From Candidatus Iainarchaeum sp. (GTDB lineage: Archaea; Iainarchaeota; Iainarchaeia; Iainarchaeales; JAZDEL01), in NCBI GenBank assembly GCA_043808785.1, contig JAZDEL010000002.1, forward strand, positions 30,001 through 62,000: a DNA stretch of 32,000 nucleotides, in the 5' to 3' direction. Below are positions 994 through 20,232 of this stretch, one piece after another. The position numbers and the translations under genes are program-made. Below the pieces are notes generated by a model that saw nothing but the letters and a program-made list of their open reading frames with translations, was not told the DNA's origin and ran no database searches. The first letter of the stretch is position 1; each line of letters starts with the position of its first letter.

Positions 994-1890
994 TCAGCAT
1001 TTCTGCATTATGCAATCCTTATATTGGCTGATGTAAGCCTGATAAAGGTATCTGACAAAAGGCCTCTCCTTTTTCTTTGCGTCCACTTCCCGAAGGGTGA
1101 GGTAATACAGCATTTTTTCGGAATTGTAGATGTTTAGAAGGGGATAATTGTTCTTCATCAGTATGTAATTCATGAGCAGCCTCGAAACCCTCCCGTTTCC
1201 GTCCATGAACGGGTGTATGCGTGCAATGCGCAGGTGCACGAGCGCTGCAAGCTCGAAAGTGTGCAGCATGCCCTCCGCCTGCCCGAACCACGAGAACAGC
1301 CTTGCAAGTTCAGCAGGCACTTCCTCCGGCTTAGGGGGCAGGTAATTGCCGACTATATTCTGCCTTTCCCTTATTTTTCCCGCCTCGGGGTGCACGCCCT
1401 TCATTTCAAGAGCATGCAGCTTCAGCAGCAGTTCTTTGCCAAATTCACCCTTATAATCGAAAAGGAAGTCTATGCACGCCTTCATGTTCTTTACTTCCCT
1501 GATGCTGCGCTTCGCGTATTTTGTTTTCGGCTTTTTCCCGTCGATTATGTTCCCCGTGTCCTCATAACTTACAGGGCAGCCCTCAATCGCGTTCGTGTCA
1601 TAAATGAACCCTATAAGCCTTTCCTTCCCGCTTTTCCACATCCCCTTCCCTATTTTGTGCCTTTTCAGGTAGCCCTCCCTAAGCAGTTCTATTACTTTCA
1701 CCTGTTTCGGCGTCATCAGCCTTTTCACCGGCTGCGCAAGTTCGAGCCCCTTTTCCGCAGTTCCCAGGTTGGAGAGGTCCTTCCCCACGTATTTGCTTAT
1801 CTTTTTCCACTTGCCCTTCGAAACGCGGATATTCCTGGAAAGGTAGAAGTATTCCTTTCCCGCGACCTTCTTCCGTTCTATATATGCCAT
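994..1890 (-). CDS. fic: Fic/DOC family protein (probable AMPylase) with an N-terminal inhibitory-helix motif (class II Fic)
   Basis: Canonical Fic motif HPFMDGNGRVSR. A TNAIEG stretch upstream fits the (S/T)xxxE(G/N) auto-inhibition motif. I prefer the ATG at 1890 (MAYIERKK) because a TTTTAAA box lies about 27 nt upstream; the ORF track start at 1938 would place that box and the repeats inside the CDS. Confidence 0.85.
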   Translation of the reverse strand: MAYIERKKVAGKEYFYLSRNIRVSKGKWKKISKYVGKDLSNLGTAEKGLELAQPVKRLMTPKQVKVIELLREGYLKRHKIGKGMWKSGKERLIGFIYDTNAIEGCPVSYEDTGNIIDGKKPKTKYAKRSIREVKNMKACIDFLFDYKGEFGKELLLKLHALEMKGVHPEAGKIRERQNIVGNYLPPKPEEVPAELARLFSWFGQAEGMLHTFELAALVHLRIARIHPFMDGNGRVSRLLMNYILMKNNYPLLNIYNSEKMLYYLTLREVDAKKKERPFVRYLYQAYISQYKDCIMQKC

Positions 1891-1897
1891 GGTATAA

Positions 1898-2058
1898 TTA
1901 GGGCGCACAAAGTTTAAAAGCCTATTTAGGGCGCACAATTTTCATTTTTTGAAACGTGCGCCCTAAATCACATGCCTGCGTAGGGTTCCTTCTGGCGGCA
2001 AATTAGGGCGTTCGTGTTTCGCACAGGAAATCATTCTTCGGCGTTTCGCACCGGAAAT
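1898..2058. promoter_or_regulatory. Divergent promoter region carrying two operator-like repeat families
   Basis: TTAGGGCGCAC occurs at 1898-1908 and 1926-1936. Its exact reverse complement GTGCGCCCTAA is at 1956-1966, and a partial TTAGGGCG copy is at 2003-2010. GTTTCGCACNGGAAAT occurs at 2016-2031 and 2043-2058 (15/16 identical). TATA-like boxes: TTTTAAA on the minus strand between the first two repeats, and GATAAATA at about 2074-2083 for the plus-strand gene. Confidence 0.6.
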
Positions 2059-2106: not shown

Positions 2107-3609
2107 ATGCCCAATACTCCCGATACGCACTACCTTACAGGCGCGCATTACCTCCCTGAACGGAAGGAGGTTGCCGCCGAGTTCCGCAGCCCCGCGGGCG
2201 GCAGGGTAATTGAGCGCTTCAAATTTTTCCCTTCTTTTTACTTGGGCACCGGCGGCATTGAACCCAGCCTTCTTGAAGAGGTTCTTTCCCTTTACGACGG
2301 CAGGCGCTTCATGTGCAGGGGCATTGCCCCCGGCAGGCTGCAGGTTACGGCTTCCGCCTATGCCGACCTGCGGAAAATCGCAAATTTGCTTTCCTCTTCC
2401 CTTATGCTTAACCTTTCCGTTCCGGAACCGGAAAGGCAGTTCCTGCTGCAAAATGGCTGGAGCTATTTCGACGCCTTTGAAAAGGCGCAGGAAAAGTTCA
2501 GGAAAATTCCTCCCCCCTCTCTCCCGGCAGTACAGCCCGATTTCCTTGCGCTGCCCCTGCAGGAGGCGCTGCGTGAACTCATGCTCTCCGATGCGCAGGG
2601 AGCGGAACTGCTGGCAAAGCGCATCGCGCTCTCAAACATCCTGTGTACTCGCCCCCAAAACCTTCCCAACGGAACCTCCGCAATGCTGGACCTTATGCTT
2701 GAAAACTTATTCTTTTCCTGCGCACTGCCCGCACCTACGGGCAGTGCGTTCCCCCGCAATCGCACTGAAAATTGCGCATGCGCGGAAAAGGAAAACCCCA
2801 TACCTCACGAGAACCGGCCTGCAGAGCCCTATTTTCACTGCGCTCTGCCTCTGCCTGATGCGGAATTCCTCCTCAATCTGGGGCAGGAGACAATGAATTG
2901 CGGATGCTGCAGGCCAGAAACACTTTCCGCGGAAAACATTTCCCCCACGGCGCTTGTGAATGTGCTGTTCAATTCCGACGGAATATTCTTCGAATCCGCA
3001 TACACGCGCTGGGCGGAGGAATTCCATAATTCAAACCCGGAAAGGGAGCGCAGGGAGCGCTGGAGAATGGAATGGTCTTTGCCGTCAATTCCCGCAGGCC
3101 CTTTCTTCAGGGGGCAGGCTGCAATGGTTCCGTTCGCCGACCTGCAAATGCTCACGGAGAAGGGCTGTGTTTCGGTGCTTCCCCACGGTCACGAACTTTC
3201 ATGGTTCTGCACGAAGCACGAATCCGCAATATCGCGGCAGATAAGGGAGTCGAACGAAAGGGTTTCCCTGCTCGGTGCAATGGTTGCTGAGCGCGAGAAA
3301 ACGCACCTCAAAAGCCACAAAATACTTTTCGCATCCGCGCTCGGGCAGGATGCCGAGCACCTTTATCTTTCTAACCTGAACTCATCCCTTTCAGAACTCA
3401 TAAGCCTCATGCCCGCACACCTTGCAAACCCGAATTCAAGGTTCTATTCGAGGCAATTGGCGGATGCAATCTCCTGCATACGGCAGGGCATGGTAAGGAA
3501 TGCAAGGGTTATCGGTTCGGAGCAAGCCCCCGTGCTTTCCCCCGCAGGAAAGGGCGCGGGAATAATGCTGCTCCTGACGAGGCAGTTCTCGCTTTCCGCG
3601 CGAGGTTAG
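2107..3609 (+). CDS. Hypothetical 500-aa protein; possible truncated, catalytically degenerate family B DNA polymerase homolog
   Basis: Long ORF with no competing frame. By-eye alignment to Thermococcus-type PolB gives these correspondences. FFPSFY (aa 40-45) matches [20 protein letters not shown] matches DIPFAKRYLIDKGL. FDAF (121-124) sits at the Exo I FDIE position. [22 protein letters not shown] matches [31 protein letters not shown] (251-258) sits at motif A (DxxSLYPS). CRPETL matches [15 protein letters not shown] (405-413) sits at motif B (KxxxNSxYG). VIGSEQA (468-474) sits at motif C (YSDTDG). No thumb domain is present. Confidence 0.35.
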   Translation: [500 protein letters not shown]

Positions 3610-3635: not shown

Positions 3636-3674
3636 TTTTTAAATATAATTATATATAATTATTTTGGTATTTTT
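3636..3674 (+). promoter_or_regulatory. AT-rich TATA-like promoter block upstream of vapB
   Basis: TTTTTAAATATAATTATATATAATTATTTTGGTATTTTT lies immediately 5' of the ATG at 3675. It is the most AT-rich stretch in this part of the window. Confidence 0.45.
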
Positions 3675-3932
3675 ATGGACGTGCAGGTAGTAGTGAGGAA
3701 GTGGGGCAACTCGCTCGGCGTAACCCTGCCGAAGCAGGTTGTGGAAACCCAGGGTATCAGGGAAAACGAGCGGCTGTCCATAGAGGTTAACCGGAAGAGG
3801 CCTGTGCGCATAAAGGATTTTTTCGGGCTTGCGCGCGGCTGGAAGATTGACGCGCAGAAGATGAAAGATGCGGCAAGGAGGGCTGACCTTGAAAGGGACA
3901 GAAAACTTTCTGGACTCCTACGCGCTCATTGA
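3675..3932 (+). CDS. vapB: AbrB/MazE/SpoVT-family antitoxin (VapB-like)
   Basis: MDVQVVVRKWGNSLGVTLPKQVVETQGIRENERLSIEV is the swapped-hairpin AbrB/SpoVT signature (WGNSLGVxLPK). I prefer the internal ATG at 3675 over the track start at 3618, which would encode an AT-rich hydrophobic leader. Confidence 0.8.
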   Translation: MDVQVVVRKWGNSLGVTLPKQVVETQGIRENERLSIEVNRKRPVRIKDFFGLARGWKIDAQKMKDAARRADLERDRKLSGLLRAH

Positions 3933-4260
3933 GATACTGCGCGGCAACCCGCGTTATGCGGCGATTGCCGAGTATACTGCCGTTTCAACCGTGGCAAATT
4001 TGGTCGAGGTGGCATACTGCCTGCTTTACGAGTTCCCGAAAGAGAAGGTCTCCGAAATGGTAAATTCGCTCGGAATCAAGGTTCTTGATGTGCGTGCGGA
4101 CCATGTTATGCAGGTGGCTGAATTCAGGAAGGAGCACTCGAAAAAAGGGTTTTCATATATCGACTGCATCGGCTATGTTCTGGCGAAAGAGAGCCGCCTG
4201 CCGTTCGTGACAGGCGACAGGCAGTTCGAGGGCATGCCGAATGTGGAATTCATAAAATGA
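3868..4260 (+). CDS. vapC: PIN-domain ribonuclease toxin (VapC-like)
   Basis: FLDSYALIEIL supplies the first acidic residue, the VEVAY region the second, and VTGDRQF the C-terminal one. It overlaps the vapB 3' end. The start could be the ATG at 3868 or the in-frame TTG at 3889. Confidence 0.8.
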   Translation: MRQGGLTLKGTENFLDSYALIEILRGNPRYAAIAEYTAVSTVANLVEVAYCLLYEFPKEKVSEMVNSLGIKVLDVRADHVMQVAEFRKEHSKKGFSYIDCIGYVLAKESRLPFVTGDRQFEGMPNVEFIK

Positions 4261-8850: not shown

Positions 8851-8952
8851 GGGCCCATAGGCTAACGGATAGACCTCCCGGCTTCGGTTTCGGTTCAAGC
8901 CGTGAACGGAAGGAGGAACCGGGAAATGGGGGTTCGATTCCCTCTGGGCCCG
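8851..8952 (+). tRNA. tRNA-Arg (anticodon UCG) with a 30-nt intron at the canonical 37/38 position; no encoded CCA
   Basis: Acceptor stem GGGCCCA pairs with TGGGCCC, followed by discriminator G. The T arm is GGGGG-TTCGATT-CCCTC. The anticodon stem CCCGG pairs with CCGGG, and the loop is CTTCGG|A. The intron (8888-8917) folds into a BHB: 5' bulge GG|U, central helix CUUC/GGAG, 3' bulge GA|A. Confidence 0.75.
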
Positions 8953-13380: not shown

Positions 13381-14082
13381 TCAAAATCCTATCCATTCCA
13401 CTTTCGGTTTCTTCCCTTCCTCAAGTTCAACCATCACGGCATTCCCGTCCTTCAACGCGCCAGTATTTATGCACAGCGTTTCCCCGAGCATCTCGCTGCC
13501 CTTTGCCTCGTGCACGTGGCCGCACACGAAGAGCAGGGGCGTGAATTTTTCAATCGCGCCCCTTATTGCCCTCATGCCGAGATCGTGCCCTGCCGCAGTC
13601 CTCGAAAGCGAGGTTCCGAAGGGAGGGGAGTGCGCAACAAGAACCGTCCGCTTTCCCTCGCAGCCCTCCAGCATTTTCGCAAGGTATTTCTCCGCCTCAA
13701 GTTCCCCGGTGTTCACGCGGTAATAGGTGTTCACGGGCTTCGCGCCCCCGAGCCCGGCAAAAACAAAACCCCCAACCTCCACAGTTTCTTTGTGCAGGTT
13801 AACTCCCCCTTCATTCAGCAAACCAATAACCTCCCTGCTGTCCATATTCCCCGGCACCGCAAGCACGCGCGCAAACGAAAGCGCGTCAAGTATCTCTGCG
13901 GCAACCTTTGCCGAACCCTCCTTTGTGAAATCCCCTGCAACAACAACCAAATCGACATTTCCCGCCTTAATGCCGACATTGCCTTTGCCAGCCGCGCGGT
14001 TATGGTTATGTAGAAGTTTATCCCTGAGCCTTTCCGCTGCGGCAATATCCGAATGCGCATCCGCAACAAACACAACCTTCAT
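13381..14082 (-). CDS. Calcineurin-like metallophosphoesterase
   Basis: Motifs appear in the expected order: VADAHSD, VVAGDFT, GNMD, AHSPP, GHVHE. Confidence 0.85.
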   Translation of the reverse strand: MKVVFVADAHSDIAAAERLRDKLLHNHNRAAGKGNVGIKAGNVDLVVVAGDFTKEGSAKVAAEILDALSFARVLAVPGNMDSREVIGLLNEGGVNLHKETVEVGGFVFAGLGGAKPVNTYYRVNTGELEAEKYLAKMLEGCEGKRTVLVAHSPPFGTSLSRTAAGHDLGMRAIRGAIEKFTPLLFVCGHVHEAKGSEMLGETLCINTGALKDGNAVMVELEEGKKPKVEWIGF

Positions 14083-14187
14083 CCCGCAATCCCGCCCCTA
14101 ATTTAAAATCCCGTCCCCCTCATGCCATAACCCCGCGCGAGCATGCCTTTTTAACTTTTATCGAGGAATACATTATCTGTGGGATTG

Positions 14188-14979
14188 ATGTTAAAAGGAT
14201 TTCTTGCGGGGACCTTCCTGCTTATGCTGCTTTGTGCCGTTTCCGCGGACATATACATGGTAAGCCCCGTGGATTCCGTGGTTGTGCGGGATGCAGTCCT
14301 TGAACTCGGCTCGGCCGAGCCGGGGCAAAACGTGGAAATCCTGCTTTCCTCCAAATCCGGCTACGAAACCCCGTGGAGCACCGCATCCATAACCGATGTT
14401 CCCGCGGGCTGGGATGCAAAGGGCTCTGTCGGAGGGGGGAAAACCCTCGGCGTGAACGTCGGAATACCCGAGACCGCGGCACAGAACGCCTATAACCTCA
14501 CAATCGAGCTCTCAAACCCCGAGGCAAAGCTTCCCGCAGAGCGCTTCAGCGCAAGGCTCTATGTGCAGAAAGGCCTGCTCAGGGCATCCGTTGTCCAGCA
14601 GCCGTCGCAGCTGCTTGTCGGCGAGCCGATTCCCTACCATATCACGATAAACAACGACTCCATAGCCAGGCACAGGGTCCTGCTGAATTCCACCCTTTCG
14701 GAGCAGTGGTTTCGGAGCGGGGAATACCTGCTCGAGCCCAAGCAGGCTGTCGAGAAGACCGTTTATGTGACGCCGCGCGTTTACGGCAGGGTTTCGTATT
14801 CCATTGCTCTCACGTCCCTTGTCAACGGCAGCGGCATAGCGAAGACGGACTCTAAGCTCGACATCATGCCGACCCTGAAAAGCAAATATTCCGCGGCACT
14901 GTACGGCTTCCCGTTCTTCACCGCAACGCTCCTCCCTTACTATGCAGTCAACTCCGCAATAAGCTACTTCTTCCCTTAA
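14188..14979 (+). CDS. Secreted or cell-surface hypothetical protein (signal peptide plus C-terminal hydrophobic segment)
   Basis: N-terminal FLAGTFLLMLLCAVSADIY signal-like sequence, a beta-rich body with N-x-S/T sites, and a hydrophobic C-terminus. The GTG at 14179 is also possible. Confidence 0.55.
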   Translation: MLKGFLAGTFLLMLLCAVSADIYMVSPVDSVVVRDAVLELGSAEPGQNVEILLSSKSGYETPWSTASITDVPAGWDAKGSVGGGKTLGVNVGIPETAAQNAYNLTIELSNPEAKLPAERFSARLYVQKGLLRASVVQQPSQLLVGEPIPYHITINNDSIARHRVLLNSTLSEQWFRSGEYLLEPKQAVEKTVYVTPRVYGRVSYSIALTSLVNGSGIAKTDSKLDIMPTLKSKYSAALYGFPFFTATLLPYYAVNSAISYFFP

Positions 14980-14991
14980 GCGGGTTTTCCG

Positions 14992-16722
14992 ATGGGCAGC
15001 GAAAGTTTCTGCCGCGAAGCTGTTTCAGCGGTTCCCTGCGGGGCTGCAGGTTCGGCTAACGCCGCAAAAAAGCCGGCTGTTTCCGCGGATGCCGCGGAAA
15101 AGTTCTGCCGCGAAATTCTTTCCGCAATTTCCCGCGGCAGGGTAAGCGGCAAGGCGGAACTCAACAGCCTGAAACTCGAGATTGCAAAAAAATTCCGCCT
15201 GCCCTCCCTGCCCACGGATCCCGACATACTCATGCACGCAAAAAAACCCTCCCCGCGCCTGCGCGCACTTCTCTCAATAAAGCCCGTGCGCTCGCTTTCG
15301 GGGGTTGCGGTTGTCGCGGTTATGGTAAAGCCGCACAAGTGCCCCGGCAGTTGCATTTACTGCCCCTCGGGCATAGGCAGGGAGATGCCGAAAAGTTACA
15401 CAGGCAGGGAACCCGCCGCGCTCCGCGCGCTCGAATTTAATTTCGACCCTTTCCTTCAGGCGCGGAACCGCATCGAACAGCTTGAACTCACGGGGCACAG
15501 CACGGGGAAAATAGAGCTGATTGTAATGGGCGGCACATTCCTCTCCACTCCGAAAGCATACCAGGATTCCTTTGTTAAGGGCGCCCTGGATGCAATCGCG
15601 GGGGGTAAGCAAAAGAGCAGCACCCTTACCCAGGCAAAAAAAACCGCCGAACGCTCGGTTCGCAGGGTTGTCGGCATAACCTATGAAACCCGCCCCGATT
15701 TTTGTTCCAAGCATGAAATTAACCGCGTCCTCTCCCTCGGCGGAACGCGCGTCGAATTGGGGGTGCAGATGCCCGATGACGCAATTTATGGGAAAATAAA
15801 AAGGGGGCACACAGTGAAAGATGTCGTGCTCGCAACCTCGCGCCTCAAGGATTCCGCACTGAAGGTTTGCTGCCACATCATGCCTGGTTTGCCCGGCTCA
15901 ACACCTGAAAACGACCTCTCGCGCTTCAAGGAATTGTTCTCGAACCCGGATTTCAGGCCCGACATGCTGAAATTTTACCCGTGCCTTGTGATGGAGGGCA
16001 CGGAATTGCACAAAGAGTGGAGGGCAGGCAACTACGAGCCGCTTGAAACGCAGGAAGCAGCGGAACTTGTCGCGGAAATGAAAAGTTTCATCCCGCCTTA
16101 TTGCAGGGTTATGAGAATCCAGCGCGACATCCCGAGCAACCTTGTTTCAGCGGGCGTTAAAAAAAGCAACCTGCGCCAGCTCGCAGCGGAAGCCGCAAAA
16201 CGGAAGGGCGTGAAATGCAGGTGCATCCGCTGCAGGGAAGCGGGCCTTACTTCATACCTGCGCGGCAAGAATGCGGGCACGGAAACCGCAGGCACCGAAC
16301 GCGGCGCAGGCAGCGCCGCAGCCGCCAGGGGCGCAAAAATCTCGCACCTCGAATACGAGGCAAGCAGGGGCACGGAAATTTTCATTTCCGCGGATGATGA
16401 AAAGCGCGATTTGCTCTTCGGCTTCTGCCGCCTGCGCATTCCTGTCGCGCCATTCCGCCCCGAAATAACCGCACGCACCGCACTCGTGCGCGAGTTAAGG
16501 GTTTATGGGGAGGCACTGCCGCTTGGCATCAGGAAGGCGGGCGCTTTCCAGCATGCAGGGCTCGGCAAAAAACTCCTTGCCGATGCGGAGGAAACCGCGC
16601 GCTCGCAGTTCGGAATGAATAAGATGCTCATCCTCTCAGGCTTAGGGGTGCGCCCCTACTACCGGGGTTTGGGATACCGCGCAAAGGGCGTTTACATGGG
16701 GAAGGCGCTGCGGCAGAATTAA
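14992..16722 (+). CDS. elp3: Elp3-type tRNA U34 modification enzyme (radical SAM plus GNAT acetyltransferase domains)
   Basis: Radical SAM cluster CPGSCIYCP, RVELGVQ, CRCIRCRE and a C-terminal GNAT region (QHAGLGKKLL). It carries a Gly/Ala-rich insert and an N-terminal extension. Confidence 0.9.
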   Translation: MGSESFCREAVSAVPCGAAGSANAAKKPAVSADAAEKFCREILSAISRGRVSGKAELNSLKLEIAKKFRLPSLPTDPDILMHAKKPSPRLRALLSIKPVRSLSGVAVVAVMVKPHKCPGSCIYCPSGIGREMPKSYTGREPAALRALEFNFDPFLQARNRIEQLELTGHSTGKIELIVMGGTFLSTPKAYQDSFVKGALDAIAGGKQKSSTLTQAKKTAERSVRRVVGITYETRPDFCSKHEINRVLSLGGTRVELGVQMPDDAIYGKIKRGHTVKDVVLATSRLKDSALKVCCHIMPGLPGSTPENDLSRFKELFSNPDFRPDMLKFYPCLVMEGTELHKEWRAGNYEPLETQEAAELVAEMKSFIPPYCRVMRIQRDIPSNLVSAGVKKSNLRQLAAEAAKRKGVKCRCIRCREAGLTSYLRGKNAGTETAGTERGAGSAAAARGAKISHLEYEASRGTEIFISADDEKRDLLFGFCRLRIPVAPFRPEITARTALVRELRVYGEALPLGIRKAGAFQHAGLGKKLLADAEETARSQFGMNKMLILSGLGVRPYYRGLGYRAKGVYMGKALRQN

Positions 16723-16752: not shown

Positions 16753-17175
16753 ATGCCAAAAAAACCAAAGCCAAGGGAGCGCAAGATACTTCCAAGGCTC
16801 TTGCACGGGGCAAATGTGGCGAAGATGGCAATGGCGGAAAATCAGTCGCTCATTAGGGAATTTGAAAAGGCGGGAGTCCCGCCTGAAAAGAGGAACCTCA
16901 CCTGGAAAGTAAAAGGCTTGACCACTGAACAGGCTTATGGCAAAACTTACAACCTGTTTGTGAGCAACAAACAAATAAGGGGCGCAAAATTGGTGGCAAA
17001 GCTCAAAACCCCAAGAGGCCGGGTGCATTATTACGAGGATACGCGCCTGAAGCACGGCACTATAGATGGCAGGAAAACAAAAAGAACCGCTAATTATCCC
17101 GGATTCGTAACCGAAGGGGAATGCCGTTTTAGTATAGTTCCTAAAGCGGGTAAAAACCCGCCAAAAAAGCGCTGA
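16753..17175 (+). CDS. Hypothetical basic protein (140 aa)
   Basis: Lys/Arg-rich at both ends (MPKKPKPRERK ... GKNPPKKR). I prefer this frame over the antisense 16642..17184 ORF, which overlaps elp3 and is rich in Cys, Phe, Trp and His. Confidence 0.5.
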   Translation: MPKKPKPRERKILPRLLHGANVAKMAMAENQSLIREFEKAGVPPEKRNLTWKVKGLTTEQAYGKTYNLFVSNKQIRGAKLVAKLKTPRGRVHYYEDTRLKHGTIDGRKTKRTANYPGFVTEGECRFSIVPKAGKNPPKKR

Positions 17176-17218
17176 GCAAACCATTATATTATTGGTCGCG
17201 CTATTTCTGTTGGTTCAT

Positions 17219-17524
17219 ATGCCGGCCGCACAGCAGGAACTTGTCGACTTCCTTTCCCAGCACCCCGAGTGCCATTTGATAAACCGGAGCGCGGTGCACA
17301 TGCGCATCCTCGATGCAATAGAGCACGAAGCCAGGTCATTCAACGACCTCTGCTCATATTTCCACACCATAGACAGCCCTGACCTTCTCGAAATACTGTC
17401 CTCCCTTGAAAAAACAGGCCTTATTGAGTGCTTCGACACGGACGGCAAGCACGTATATTGCGCAACAGCCAAGGCAAAGGAATTCATGCAAAAATTCAGG
17501 GCAGCAAAGAAAAGCACTGTTTAA
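17219..17524 (+). CDS. Small winged-helix (wHTH) DNA-binding protein, probable transcription regulator
   Basis: The helix-turn-helix-wing pattern is RILDAIEHEARSFNDLCSYF..DSPDLLEILSSLEKTGLIECFDTDGKHVY. The TATA-like CCATTATATTATT lies about 27-36 nt upstream of the ATG at 17219. Confidence 0.55.
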   Translation: MPAAQQELVDFLSQHPECHLINRSAVHMRILDAIEHEARSFNDLCSYFHTIDSPDLLEILSSLEKTGLIECFDTDGKHVYCATAKAKEFMQKFRAAKKSTV

Positions 17525-17550
17525 CCCCCTGTTTTATTGCAAACCCGCCC

Positions 17551-17583
17551 TTTTAAATATATTAAATATCATATAATATAAAG
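17551..17583 (+). promoter_or_regulatory. 33-nt nearly pure A/T block with an internal inverted repeat; promoter or operator for the 17614 gene
   Basis: TTTTAAATATATTAAATATCATATAATATAAAG. The arms ATATTA and TAATAT are separated by 9 nt. The block lies 31-63 nt upstream of the ATG at 17614. Confidence 0.45.
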
Positions 17584-17613
17584 GGGAAATACGGGTTAAG
17601 GGGTTGGTTGGAA

Positions 17614-18153
17614 ATGGCAAAGGCTAAAGCCGCGCAGGTGGAAGCAAAAGCGGACAATGCCGCTGCTCCGCCCAAATCAGCGCCTGCACAGGGAACCGTT
17701 AAACGCGGCGCTAATTGGCAGCGCTATTCGGCGGAGCCGAATGCGCCCATTTTGCCGAAAGGCAAAATAGGGCAGCCAATTGCGCCCGTTTTGGCTTCGC
17801 CAAAACGCGGAGGTGCGCTTATCGCAGTTTTAGGTGTCGGGAAAGGCAGCTGGGGGCACGTTGCGCGCCTTATTGCCGAATCCGAGTGGGGCAGGATTGT
17901 GCTGCTTTCAAACGAGTGGGGCCAGGAAAAGTTCAAGCCCCCCAAGGAATGCGAGTGGATAATGGTAAACAACCGCGCTGGGTTCGAGGTAATCAAGGAC
18001 GAAATCAAGAACAACCTGCCCGAGGGCAAACTTTCGGTTTCGCTTATTTCAGGCAGCGGCAAGGAGCACATGGCTTTGCTCGCGGCTTTGAAGGAAGCGG
18101 GCAGGGACTACGAACTCATTGTCCTAACGGGCGACGGAACCAAATCATACTGA
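17614..18153 (+). CDS. Hypothetical protein: disordered Ala/Pro/Lys-rich N-terminus plus a Rossmann-like domain of about 115 aa (CARF/SLOG-like)
   Basis: Alternating beta/alpha pattern. ALIAVLGVGKGSWG is strand 1 plus a Gly-rich loop. VSLISGSGKEHMALLAAL is strand 4 plus a loop resembling CARF xTGGxK or SLOG GGxGTxxE loops. The resemblance is by eye only. Confidence 0.4.
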   Translation: MAKAKAAQVEAKADNAAAPPKSAPAQGTVKRGANWQRYSAEPNAPILPKGKIGQPIAPVLASPKRGGALIAVLGVGKGSWGHVARLIAESEWGRIVLLSNEWGQEKFKPPKECEWIMVNNRAGFEVIKDEIKNNLPEGKLSVSLISGSGKEHMALLAALKEAGRDYELIVLTGDGTKSY

Positions 18154-18234
18154 ACCCCCGCGCGCTAATGCACAAACCCAAACCCGCGGTTATGTGAATT
18201 TGCCGCTGATGCGGAAACCCAAGGAGGCGTTTAG

Positions 18235-18600
18235 GTGGACTTGCTTGTTATTTTGCTTGCAGCCATTGTTGTGCTCCTTGCGGTTGCGCTCTACTTCCTC
18301 TTCATGCATTCGCGCAGGCTTTCCTCCGAGATTGAGGACCTTGGTTTCAGAAAAGCGAGCCAGTCCGTGAAATACGGAAAATTAACGGAGCAGTTCATCC
18401 CTTTCACGGAACAATTCCCGTTCTCGCGCGAGAACTTCAGGTTCATAGGCATGCCCATTGACGGCATAGCATTCGAGGATGATAAGATTTACATCTGCGA
18501 GTTCAAAGCCGCTGGCGGAACGCTCACCTCAAAGCAGAAAAACATAAAGCGCCTTGTGGACGAGGGAAAGGTTGAATGGTTTGAGTTCAGGCTTGGGTAA
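18235..18600 (+). CDS. Membrane-anchored PD-(D/E)xK endonuclease related to archaeal Holliday junction resolvase (Endonuc_Holl-like)
   Basis: N-terminal TM helix LLVILLAAIVVLLAVALYFLF. The core is GKLTEQFIPFTEQFPFSRENFRFIGMPIDGIAFEDDKIYICEFKAAGGTLTSKQKNIKRLVDEGKV, with D...ExK residues at PID and CEFK. AAGGAGG lies 7 nt upstream of the GTG start. Confidence 0.65.
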   Translation: MDLLVILLAAIVVLLAVALYFLFMHSRRLSSEIEDLGFRKASQSVKYGKLTEQFIPFTEQFPFSRENFRFIGMPIDGIAFEDDKIYICEFKAAGGTLTSKQKNIKRLVDEGKVEWFEFRLG

Positions 18601-19080
18601 TCAAAGCTTTATGCAAAAGTGCCTCTCGAGCGCCTTATTCAAATCATCAGAGGGCTTAATTTCATGCGAAAACCAATTTTCATTCAGGAACTTGCGCAGC
18701 CCTGACCTGTCCAGCCTGTTAAGCCTTTCAACAATATCCCTAAGTTCAGCGAAATATGCTGCTTTTTTGTAGTCCATCTTTGCAGGGTTCGGGTTTAATG
18801 CAGTAGGGGCTTTATTGTGCAAGTACTCGTTGGGTTTAAGCATTTCAATTACCTTTTCTTCTCGGGCATTTTGCGCTATTCTCCTGAACTCTTCCTTTAA
18901 CGTTTCAGGGCCCATCCTTAATCTGTTCAATTTTGTAAAGAATCTTATCTTCGGGATAAGTATGTTTTCTTCGGGTGTGCGGCCTATTTGCACATATTTC
19001 CTTTGTTTGGGCTGGCGGTTCTTGGCATTTGCAGTTGTCTGCCGCTTAAACGGCTTTTTATTCTTTCTAAAAATGCCCAT
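18601..19080 (-). CDS. Hypothetical protein (159 aa) with a basic N-terminus; immediately downstream of pelota
   Basis: The ATG at 19080 is 4 nt after the pelota stop at 19085, on the same strand. I recognise no motif. Confidence 0.5.
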   Translation of the reverse strand: MGIFRKNKKPFKRQTTANAKNRQPKQRKYVQIGRTPEENILIPKIRFFTKLNRLRMGPETLKEEFRRIAQNAREEKVIEMLKPNEYLHNKAPTALNPNPAKMDYKKAAYFAELRDIVERLNRLDRSGLRKFLNENWFSHEIKPSDDLNKALERHFCIKL

Positions 19081-19084
19081 AGGC

Positions 19085-20131
19085 TCACCCCATCCTATAT
19101 CTCAGCAGCGCAGCAATCCCGCCCAACCCTTCCAGTTGCTTCCCCGCGTCGTGCCTTGATGAGATTATGTGCACCCTTCCGCGGCTCCTCTCCGCTGACT
19201 CCATTATCCTCTCAATATTATCCCTGTCCGCCAATAAAAGCCTTTCCGCAACAAGCAGGGTTTCAACAGCCCCGGCTTCGACAGCGCGCCGCACTTCCGC
19301 AACACCGTAAGCGACAAGCCCGCTGTTCCTCCCTATCTCCGCATAAACGCTTTCGACAAGTTTCATTTCCGCGGCAACCTGCAGTTCCTCCGCAACCCTG
19401 TCGAGTTTGCCGCTTTTCACAAGCTCGTTTATTCCGGTCACGCCCACGGAATTCGTGGATTCAAAGAACGCCTGCATTTTGATTTTTTTGTCGCGGATGT
19501 ATTTCTGCAGGTTCATTTTCACAAAACCGGGCCCCGCGAAAACAACCTTGTCCGCCCCATGTTCATGGACTTTCGCAAGCACCTCCTCAAAATAGCGGTT
19601 CACATTTCCCTTCTCCTGCGTAGCGTACTGCTTCCCCTCCTTGCCAGCGAAAATCTTTCCCTTGTGCTCAATCCCCGCATCCTTCAGGAGCGCGAAATCC
19701 GCTGCCTCGTCATCCAGCACCACGGCAAGCATCTTCCCCCGCTCCGCAGCGCGCTTCGCCTGCTCCAGCCTATCTGCCTGCCAGTTCTTCAGCGATTCCT
19801 TTTTCACCTTTATTTTATATCCCGCCTCAATCCCCAAAGCGTGGTAAGATTTCAGTTCCACATATTCCTCGGGCTTCCCCGCGGTTATTATCCCGTTCAC
19901 GCGCAACTGCCCCGAGGCTTCATGCAGCGCAACTTCCTCCGCGCTTATCTCGACAAAAATATCCTTCCTGAACGCCTTCTCCCCCTCGCTCTTGGGCTTT
20001 ATCTTCCTCTCGCTCTTTCCGCTGACCAAATCCCCTTTCTCAATCAGCCTCTCAAGGTGCCACAAATCGTCGAGGCTCTCGGGAACCACTTCGAACGAAT
20101 TGTTCCTCCTGTCGATTTTTATTATTTTCAT
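19085..20131 (-). CDS. pelA: aPelota (Dom34 homolog), ribosome rescue factor
   Basis: MKIIKIDRRNNSFEVVPESLDDLWHLERLIEKGDLV is the typical Pelota N-terminus, and the C-terminal half is eRF1-like. GGTGGGAG lies just upstream of the ATG at 20131. Confidence 0.9.
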   Translation of the reverse strand: MKIIKIDRRNNSFEVVPESLDDLWHLERLIEKGDLVSGKSERKIKPKSEGEKAFRKDIFVEISAEEVALHEASGQLRVNGIITAGKPEEYVELKSYHALGIEAGYKIKVKKESLKNWQADRLEQAKRAAERGKMLAVVLDDEAADFALLKDAGIEHKGKIFAGKEGKQYATQEKGNVNRYFEEVLAKVHEHGADKVVFAGPGFVKMNLQKYIRDKKIKMQAFFESTNSVGVTGINELVKSGKLDRVAEELQVAAEMKLVESVYAEIGRNSGLVAYGVAEVRRAVEAGAVETLLVAERLLLADRDNIERIMESAERSRGRVHIISSRHDAGKQLEGLGGIAALLRYRMG

Positions 20132-20232
20132 GCTCCCACCGCGCTTCGAAACAAACATCAAACCAAACGTGCGCCCGACATGAACCTACACGAACCCGCC
20201 GTGTTTTTTGTTTTTTTAGCTCCCCCGCACAC

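Follow-up and report, generated by a model that had tools for sequence, protein, structure and literature searches.

The window analysed here, a 32,000-nt stretch of Candidatus Iainarchaeum sp. (GenBank assembly GCA_043808785.1, contig JAZDEL010000002.1, positions 30,001 to 62,000 of the forward strand), carries five open reading frames (ORFs), designated p1 to p5, between the genes elp3 and pelota (Table 1). An earlier note on this DNA, made from the sequence alone, had described the first four as a plus-strand cassette with the logic of a defence or abortive-infection module. All four ORFs are present and the block is flanked by elp3 and pelota as described, but a fifth ORF on the minus strand, p5, was not mentioned there and separates p4 from pelota. 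The two genes of main interest are p3, the product of which is predicted to adopt the CRISPR-associated Rossmann fold (CARF), and p4, which encodes a predicted membrane-anchored PD-(D/E)xK nuclease; both products have 100% identity to proteins in an NCBI metagenome-assembled genome labelled Candidatus Diapherotrites archaeon, which places the window in the DPANN phylum named Iainarchaeota in GTDB.

The AlphaFold2 model of p3 (pLDDT, the predicted local distance difference test score, 92.4) exhibits the topology β1-α-β2-α-β3-α-β4-α followed by a β5-β6 hairpin, with strands at residues 9-13, 35-40, 55-58, 81-84 and 107-113 and, after a tight turn, 116-119, and with helices between. CARF domains are defined by a six-stranded Rossmann-like core of which strands 5 and 6 form a β-hairpin (PMC4012209), and both the six-stranded core and the hairpin are found in the predicted structure of p3. 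A Foldseek comparison of this model with the PDB returned CARF proteins exclusively at ranks 1-23 (E-values 6e-5 to 2e-3, TMq 0.45-0.69). The best match was Csa3 (2wte; 6e-5), followed by Crn1/Sso2081, Can2, Csm6 and Cam1, and the first non-CARF protein, biliverdin reductase B, appeared at rank 24. The two glycine-rich loops quoted in the earlier note for a Rossmann-like protein of about 115 amino acids (aa) are present and positioned right after strands 1 and 4 of the model.

The CARF signature contains a basic residue just past strand 4, within the motif [DN]x[ST]xxx[RK] (PMC4012209), and p3 has S87-G-S-G-K91 directly after its strand 4 (81-84). Residues S87 and K91 are invariant among 29 Iainarchaeota p3 sequences, and S87, G88, G90 and H93 are at least 90% conserved among 109 diverse members of the p3 family. 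CARF domains further have a polar Ser/Thr where strand 1 ends; in p3 this strand ends with V13, and Ser/Thr20 is found seven residues further on, at the start of helix 1. As judged from the alignment together with the model, the invariant polar residues of p3 lie on the C-terminal, ligand-binding edge of the sheet; the invariant positions are G15, G17, W21, G22, H23 and R26 after strand 1, N60 and R62 after strand 3, and S87-G-x-G-K91-E-H93 after strand 4.

At the sequence level, the p3 family did not match any entry of Pfam, NCBIfam, PHROG or the PDB sequences, and the p3 profiles A1 and A6 gave only chance-level matches to the sequences of solved structures (a de novo TIM barrel and LAGLIDADG enzymes). 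When 109 members of the family were scanned singly, CARF models were the most often matched families in both PADLOC and Pfam. The PADLOC matches comprised CARF_m11 in seven members (best 1.8e-5), CARF1 in seven and Csa3 in five, as well as Csx1/Csm6 (8.4e-5) and CARF4-CARF_PDDEXK (2.7e-4); those in Pfam, all below the cutoff, comprised Csa3_N in six, HFX_2341_N in three and Cas_APE2256 in two. The CARF membership of p3 is thus supported in sequence terms by transitive, mostly sub-threshold matches of its relatives. An exhaustive profile search resolved this DPANN-wide family into 247 clusters at 50% identity, found in several hundred GTDB species genomes; nearly all members are stand-alone proteins of 115-120 aa, annotated so far only as "hypothetical protein". 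Two apparent domain fusions, P0200 with Cdc6 and P0244 with a ribbon-helix-helix domain, were set aside as likely artefacts of gene calling or assembly, since each of them holds only part of the p3 domain. Because the predicted fold, the position of the motifs and the transitive sequence signals agree, p3 is considered to represent a predicted new minimal family of the CARF superfamily, its newness being relative to the Pfam and NCBIfam models. The CARF-like character proposed in the earlier note for the Rossmann-like domain is supported both by the fold and by the sequence matches of the relatives.

Only the last about 115 aa of p3 are conserved, and most of its homologues are 115 aa long and begin five residues before strand 1; the equivalent start in the window is TTG 17791. 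The true start of p3 is uncertain between ATG 17614 and TTG 17791, and the 60-aa extension encoded between them may or may not be translated. Extensions of this type, alike in composition and variable in length, are confined to the closest relatives (P0002, P0004 and L007), and may represent either a nucleic-acid-binding tail or an over-extended gene call.

The identification of p4 as a membrane-anchored nuclease of the Endonuc_Holl family was confirmed by its match to Pfam PF10107 (E=2.7e-14; 53.7 bits against a cutoff of 23.8 bits; profile positions 73-158 of 159) and by an N-terminal hydrophobic helix with a mean Kyte-Doolittle hydropathy of 3.2 in a 19-aa window. PF10107 is present in all 79 p4 homologues. 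The D...ExK site is intact, as the reading of the earlier note requires, in alignments of 29 Iainarchaeota orthologues (A2) and 33 database homologues (A3): Glu52, Glu89 and Lys91 are invariant in both, and Asp76 is invariant in A3 and replaced by asparagine in one of the 29 sequences of A2. The aspartate is found in the context P-[IV]-D-G, and Glu89 and Lys91 in E-F-K. Also present are the 81-nt spacer between p3 and p4 and the GGAGG ribosome-binding site of p4, both of which had been pointed out before.

The charges around the hydrophobic helix are distributed in the same manner in all 45 p4 orthologues, with no lysine or arginine before the helix, where Asp or Glu is usually found, and with about three Lys/Arg within the 15 residues past it. 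By the positive-inside rule, this pattern corresponds to an N-out/C-in orientation, and the nuclease domain is therefore predicted to be cytoplasmic, at odds with the label "predicted secreted endonuclease" under which COG4741/PF10107 is listed, with no function assigned, in the census of PD-(D/E)xK proteins (PMC3424549). In the AlphaFold2 model of p4 (pLDDT 86), residues 3-40 form a single long helix, after which come a helix, three strands and a further helix; the model thus shows four of the six core elements, with no fourth strand recognized by DSSP. Its best Foldseek match, a VRR_NUC domain, is weak (E=0.31), probably as a result of the dominance of the long anchor helix, and the p4 profile gave only chance-level matches to the sequences of solved structures. 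The nuclease call therefore derives from the Pfam match and the motif, and not from the structural search.

The genomic setting of the pair was followed in 49 Iainarchaeota loci, which had been picked by their similarity to p3. The order shared by the 49 loci is metallophosphoesterase, p266 (Table 1), elp3, p2 (optional), p3, p4, a variable slot occupied for example by PurF, pelota and ABCE1. In 45 of the 49 loci p4 is the direct neighbour of p3 and shares its strand; the aligned regions of the two lie at most 300 nt apart in 43 of these 45, with many gene gaps below 20 nt and gaps of 1-200 nt in the relatives. Between p4 and pelota, by contrast, 18 of 44 loci have an insertion of more than 1 kb. 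Among ten scanned inserts, five contained the amidophosphoribosyltransferase gene purF, which is also found in L003 and L004, and the other five gave no Pfam match. The p3-p4 junction is thus the most stable one of the region, whose neighbouring junctions take insertions. Median identities to the proteins of the window are 64% for p3, 56.5% for p4, 51% for Elp3, 50% for ABCE1 and 47% for Pelota, the value for p3, but not that for p4, being inflated by the choice of loci according to p3 similarity. These data show that the pair belongs to the core of the phylum and has been inherited vertically, fixed between elp3 and pelota, and that it is under stronger purifying selection than ABCE1, Elp3 and Pelota.

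The four-gene cassette of the earlier note has accordingly to be reduced. Its expected co-occurrence in relatives is observed for p3 and p4, but p1 has no homologue in 89 related loci and matched only itself in a search of 5.8 billion protein clusters, and only 32 of the 49 loci have p2 upstream of p3 (31 with both genes on one strand), the remaining 17 lacking it. The real unit is the two-gene, operon-like p3-p4, to which p2 is added as an optional first gene in about two thirds of Iainarchaeota.

Table 1. Position of the genes and sequence features in the window.
Feature	Position	Strand	Description
Fic/DOC-domain gene	994-1938	-	E=1.2e-21
500-aa ORF	2107-3609	+	adjoins the Fic/DOC-domain gene
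A/T block TTTTTAAATATAATTATATATAATTATTTT	3636-3665		30 nt, pure A/T
MazE/AbrB-type antitoxin gene	3675-3932		begins 10 nt downstream of the A/T block
PIN-domain gene	3868-4260		overlaps the antitoxin gene
tRNA	8851-8952	+	102 nt; Rfam, 46 bits
Small metallophosphoesterase	13381-14082		orthologue near p3 in Woesearchaeota
p266	14179-14979	+	266 aa, N-terminal hydrophobic segment
elp3	14992-16722	+	upstream flank
p1	16753-17175	+	140 aa, basic ORFan
p2	17219-17524	+	101 aa; annotated start ATG 17219, TTG 17192 possible
A/T block TTTTAAATATATTAAATATCATATAATATAAA	17551-17582	+	about 30 nt upstream of ATG 17614
p3	17614-18153 (17608 alternative)	+	179 aa
p3 N-terminal extension	17614-17790	+	Ala/Lys/Pro-rich, basic, low complexity, lineage-specific
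p3 core	17791-18153	+	minimal CARF-fold domain of about 115 aa (predicted)
p3 motif 1, L14-GxGKG[ST]WG-H23	17830-17859	+	after strand 1
p3 motif 2, S87-GSGKE-H93	18049-18069	+	after strand 4
p4 ribosome-binding site GGAGG	18223-18227	+	7 nt before GTG 18235
p4	18235-18600	+	121 aa, GTG start
p4 transmembrane anchor, residues 3-24	18241-18306	+	predicted from hydropathy and charge pattern
p4 nuclease core	18352-18600	+	PF10107 Endonuc_Holl / COG4741 (Pfam)
p4 catalytic residues (predicted)	E52 18388-18390; D76 18460-18462; E89 18499-18501; K91 18505-18507	+	
p5	18601-19080	-	159 aa, basic ORFan
pelota	19085-20161	-	downstream flank

With the single p2 sequence only sub-threshold Pfam matches were obtained (HTH_45, MarR_2). 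The family profile A5, built from 25 members, matched winged helix-turn-helix (wHTH) regulators of the PDB at E-values of 6e-4 to 1e-3 (DsvD 5.7e-4, YodB 9e-4, Rv0081 1.2e-3), so that the winged-helix call of the earlier note is upheld and p2 is predicted to be a small winged-helix protein of the HxlR/ArsR/MarR-like type. The mean column identity of the family is only 36%. A kinship of p2 with the wHTH-like cluster c5, found upstream of p3 in some Woesearchaeota, was considered and dropped, as hhalign gave no support for it.

The sequence between p2 and p3 had been described as a 33-nt pure A/T block; the actual block consists of 19 A/T, one C and 12 A/T, and is the second-longest A/T stretch of the window. 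In most Iainarchaeota loci the 15-35 nt upstream of p3 likewise hold a TA-rich palindromic block, irrespective of whether p2 is there, and a block with a near-identical start, TTTTTAAATATA (TTTTAAATATA), precedes an unrelated MazE/PIN gene pair elsewhere in the window. Since similar blocks occur without p2 as well as upstream of this toxin-antitoxin pair, the block is most simply read as a strong promoter, probably the BRE/TATA-type (B recognition element and TATA box) archaeal promoter of p3-p4, and the candidate role of a dedicated p2 operator was rejected. The designation of p2 as a dedicated regulator likewise reduces to adjacency, as p3 has a promoter-like block whether or not p2 is present. 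The MazE/PIN genes themselves, in which the PIN-domain gene overlaps the MazE/AbrB-type antitoxin gene, form a VapBC-like toxin-antitoxin pair with a leaderless-type promoter.

As regards base composition, the four-gene block has a GC content of 0.506 compared with a window mean of 0.531, which places it at the 11th percentile of windows of the same size. The GC content at third codon positions (GC3) of p2, p3 and p4 is 0.62-0.66, equal to that of elp3, pelota and rli, and is atypical only in p1 (0.52) and p5 (0.49), with neighbours at about 0.65. The impression that the block is AT-richer than its flanks is therefore marginal: p2 to p4 have native GC3, and there is no AT-rich island. No homologue of p5 was found in the 89 related loci, and an exact-sequence look-up in a collection of 15 billion proteins, which is not a homology search, returned it as a one-member cluster; p1 likewise forms a one-member cluster in that collection. 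Lacking homologues in the related loci and having atypical GC3, both p1 and p5 were rejected as members of the cassette; they may be considered as species-specific fillers, which either entered variable junctions recently or are not true genes. In the closest relative (L089; p3 92% identical) a different ORFan stands at the position of p5, and a TnpB/Cas12f1-like gene with a TNB domain (L089:1-1017, minus strand) is found directly upstream of p3, where the contig ends; this gene occupies the place of elp3, p1 and p2 of the window.

The rest of the window is mostly of housekeeping character, with genes for Rad50, a CCA-adding enzyme, a FlaI-type ATPase, LigT, TYW3 and the small metallophosphoesterase, and further for ABCE1, phosphoglycerate mutase, a tRNA, a Fic protein and the MazE/PIN pair. 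The tRNA was called by Rfam and missed by ARAGORN, and is probably an intron-containing archaeal tRNA. The protein p266 has no Pfam match and is kept directly upstream of elp3 in 36 of the 49 Iainarchaeota loci at 23-53% identity. The 500-aa ORF that adjoins the Fic/DOC-domain gene gave no match in a Pfam scan.

Outside Iainarchaeota, p3 homologues 40-50% identical to p3 of the window were found in 31 loci of Woesearchaeota/Nanoarchaeia (L056-L086), none of which has a p4-like gene within 6 kb of p3. In 15 of the 31, p3 is followed on the same strand by a gene for an Orc1/Cdc6-type AAA+ protein, often with a gap of less than 50 nt (e.g. L057:5938-8413), and in ten of the 31 the orthologue of the small metallophosphoesterase comes next, the only p3 neighbour common to both phyla. 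A search of 2.9 million IMG/VR contigs yielded no relative of p3. Nine large viral contigs of that collection (L090-L098) encode PF10107-type membrane nucleases 27-40% identical to p4, and the COG4741 family is thus also carried by viruses. A distant p3 homologue of 233 aa, P0265, is encoded on a 63-kb Logan contig (SRR26786818_3241; L100:4001-4702) next to genes for a large terminase, a Mu-type portal protein and an RNase H/PolB-exo protein, and with such neighbours it is apparently virus-borne. It keeps the sequence GRGSWGH and has SGSGIDH in place of SGSGKEH, so that the lysine of the motif is gone; P0265 might be a host factor hijacked by the virus, or a decoy.

Taken together, p3 and p4 may be considered as a vertically inherited, CRISPR-independent sensor of the Csa3/HFX_2341-like type that is co-expressed with, and possibly gates, a membrane-tethered nuclease, a reading to which we give about an even chance of being correct. 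In this mechanism p3 would bind a nucleotide-type ligand that bears phosphate and is produced by the cell rather than by a CRISPR cyclase. The ligand would sit on the crest formed by the GxGKG[ST]WGH loop after strand 1, N60/R62 after strand 3 and the SGxGKEH loop after strand 4, and p3 would serve as a signal sensor comparable to Csa3/HFX_2341, with p2 possibly supplying the DNA binding in trans. Alternatively or additionally, p3 could directly gate the co-expressed membrane nuclease p4, and the two proteins would then be a split, membrane-anchored analogue of the fused Can2/Card1. The process served would most likely be DNA housekeeping, meaning replication, repair or the handling of DNA at the membrane; in Woesearchaeota p3 is encoded beside orc1/cdc6 instead of the nuclease.

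Several observations weigh against such a sensor-nuclease pair. With regard to the fold, NAD(P)- and ATP-binding Rossmann proteins appear among the Foldseek matches from rank 24 on, and the loop after strand 1 is open to a second reading, as a classical GxGxxG dinucleotide motif. The p3 of the window itself matched no CARF model in Pfam or PADLOC, and the D/N position of the CARF signature is occupied in the p3 family by Leu, Ile, Val, Met, Ala or Ser, so that p3 has only the [ST]xxx[RK] half of that signature. With regard to the pairing, p3 is conserved also where no p4 accompanies it, namely in Woesearchaeota and in three or four loci of Iainarchaeota, and PF10107 nucleases occur without p3 on a Thermoplasmata contig, a phage-like contig and the nine IMG/VR contigs, from which it follows that neither protein strictly needs the other. 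The link between them is drawn from conserved operon-like adjacency in one phylum, in which the whole region is syntenic, and the selection of loci by p3 similarity bears on the conservation of p3 as stated above.

It is conceivable, although we regard it as rather unlikely, that p3 and p4 have independent functions and have stayed neighbours through the inheritance of gene order, p3 being a small Rossmann nucleotide- or cofactor-binding protein or an enzyme with an essential role of its own, for example in replication initiation, and p4 a membrane nuclease unrelated to it. Each of the two families is widespread without the other, synteny in the phylum extends over the entire region from elp3 to ABCE1, and p4 of the window is preceded by its own ribosome-binding site and the 81-nt spacer, while the proximity of p3 to orc1/cdc6 in 15 of 31 Woesearchaeota loci would agree with the role suggested. 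The GxGxxG-like loop is moreover accompanied in Iainarchaeota by an acidic residue after strand 2, as well as by the classical Rossmann proteins among the Foldseek matches; the residue after strand 2 is, however, Gln or Arg in several Woesearchaeota-type members, and it is CARF and not classical Rossmann proteins that dominate both the fold and the sequence signals. Mere persistence of gene order also has to be reconciled with the p3-p4 junction being the most stable of the region (within 300 nt in 43 of 45 loci and below 20 nt in many), and fusions of CARF domains with nucleases are an established architecture (PMC4012209).

The defence reading of the earlier note, according to which the CARF domain would sense an infection-induced cyclic oligonucleotide and switch on the membrane nuclease under wHTH control as part of a chromosomal defence or abortive-infection module, is improbable, and it fails all the contextual tests that were proposed along with it. 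In place of known defence genes, the pair adjoins elp3, TYW3, LigT, pelota, ABCE1 and PurF, and the locus is not a defence island. Among the proteins of the window, p1, p3, p4 and p5 had no PADLOC match and p2 gave noise only. No cas or cyclase domain was detected in the scanned window ORFs of at least 150 aa, in agreement with what the earlier note had stated, nor among the genes called in L001-L006 and L089. Genes for defence usually have a patchy distribution and evolve fast, whereas this locus keeps a fixed place amid housekeeping genes throughout 49 genomes with a variable slot mostly taken by PurF, is vertically inherited, has native composition and encodes proteins conserved above ABCE1, Elp3 and Pelota. 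The features that do recall defence are the CARF fold of p3 and the matches of its family to CARF models, those of CARF-PDDEXK effectors included, the intact nuclease site of p4, and a logic like that of the fused effectors Can2/Card1 and of the membrane CARF effector Cam1, with Can2 and Cam1 also being structural matches of p3. The PF10107 relatives on nine viral contigs, the p3-like protein without the motif lysine on the terminase/portal contig, which could be a viral decoy, and the variable ORFans and TnpB gene that flank the pair in the lineage of the window point in the same direction. Set against them are the retention of p3 without a nuclease neighbour, beside orc1/cdc6, in Woesearchaeota, and the absence of p3 relatives from the 2.9 million IMG/VR contigs. 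The combination of a sensor with a nuclease does not by itself define a defence system.

DPANN archaea have reduced genomes, and many of them are thought to depend on salvage. That p4 could be a secreted or outward-facing nuclease which scavenges external or host DNA for nucleotides, p3 being irrelevant to it, would suit the label of COG4741/PF10107 in the PD-(D/E)xK census (PMC3424549) and the frequent occurrence of the purine-synthesis gene for PurF next after p4, but is very improbable in view of the charge pattern of all 45 orthologues, which runs opposite to that of signal peptides and type II anchors and by which the nuclease is predicted to be cytoplasmic.

In its neighbourhood p3 is among the most conserved proteins across Iainarchaeota, and it reaches into Woesearchaeota. 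Nearly all that is known of CARF domains concerns their role as sensors in type III CRISPR and related defence signalling. If p3 senses a ligand, DPANN archaea would have an unrecognized core nucleotide-signalling pathway, and p3 would be the second case, next to HFX_2341 of haloarchaea, in which Csa3-like proteins act outside CRISPR. The pairing with a predicted inward-facing PD-(D/E)xK nuclease would represent a concrete and testable output, and would give the first functional handle on COG4741. A wider and more speculative proposal, which we hold to be doubtful, is that the whole p3 family constitutes a housekeeping CARF sensor of DPANN archaea, a vertically inherited and CRISPR-independent receptor for an endogenous nucleotide second messenger with its output in DNA transactions, through the Hjc-like membrane nuclease in Iainarchaeota and in the Orc1/Cdc6 neighbourhood in Woesearchaeota. 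Were this true, CARF signalling would be a core pathway in archaea with minimal genomes, possibly near the ancestral, pre-CRISPR role of the fold, and the virus-borne homologue lacking the lysine would be a possible decoy.

When compared with known systems, p4 is a member of the PF10107 Endonuc_Holl/COG4741 family in having the N-terminal hydrophobic helix and the intact E...D...ExK site. As no member of PF10107 has a tested function, membership in the family gives no mechanism for p4. The Iainarchaeota branch is unusual within it in its fixed pairing with a predicted CARF gene and in its predicted cytoplasmic topology. A link of CARF signalling to the membrane is shared with Cam1, one of the structural matches of p3; in Cam1, however, the transmembrane helix is part of the CARF protein and the output is membrane depolarization, whereas here the predicted anchor is on the nuclease p4. 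The ring nucleases of the Crn1 type (Sso2081, Sso1393 and Sis0455) resemble p3 in being small proteins that consist essentially of a CARF domain, and are high-ranking structural matches; a conserved Ser/Gly loop after strand 1 and a lysine after strand 4 are also present. The Crn1 proteins differ in their length of about 180 aa, their extra C-terminal domain and their linkage to CRISPR, and p3 has the additional invariant residues His23 and His93.

The combination of a CARF sensor with a nuclease of the restriction-endonuclease fold is found in Can2/Card1, and CARF domains fused to such nucleases are an established architecture (PMC4012209). Structures of Can2 have the highest TM-scores to p3 (0.64-0.69), and some members of the p3 family weakly match the CARF4-CARF_PDDEXK model (best E=2.7e-4). 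Can2/Card1 are, however, single polypeptides activated by cyclic tetra-adenylate (cA4) in type III CRISPR, whereas p3 and p4 are separate genes with an 81-nt spacer, and a fused form of p3 with a nuclease was not seen among the 247 clusters of the p3 family. Furthermore, p4 belongs to another nuclease family (PF10107) and is membrane-anchored, and p3-p4 is a fixed core locus and not an accessory gene, with no type III CRISPR or cyclase nearby.

The closest resemblance in fold is to Csa3 and HFX_2341: among solved structures p3 is matched best by Csa3 (2wte), the N-terminal models of both proteins are often matched by members of the p3 family, and a winged-helix protein is encoded directly upstream of p3 in 32 of 49 genomes. 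Csa3a of Sulfolobus is reportedly also tied to DNA-repair genes. In Csa3 and HFX_2341 the CARF domain is joined with a C-terminal winged helix in a fusion, whereas p3 is a CARF domain alone that ends right after strand 6, with the winged helix as a separate, optional and poorly conserved gene in the reverse order, i.e. with the wHTH first; in addition, the D/N position of the CARF signature is hydrophobic in p3, and p3 of the window matched no curated model at threshold. The closest precedent is HFX_2341, a Csa3-like regulator with vertical inheritance that is present in CRISPR-less haloarchaea too and has no known cyclase (PMC11434293), and p3 resembles it in being vertically inherited and strongly conserved without a tie to CRISPR or a known cyclase.

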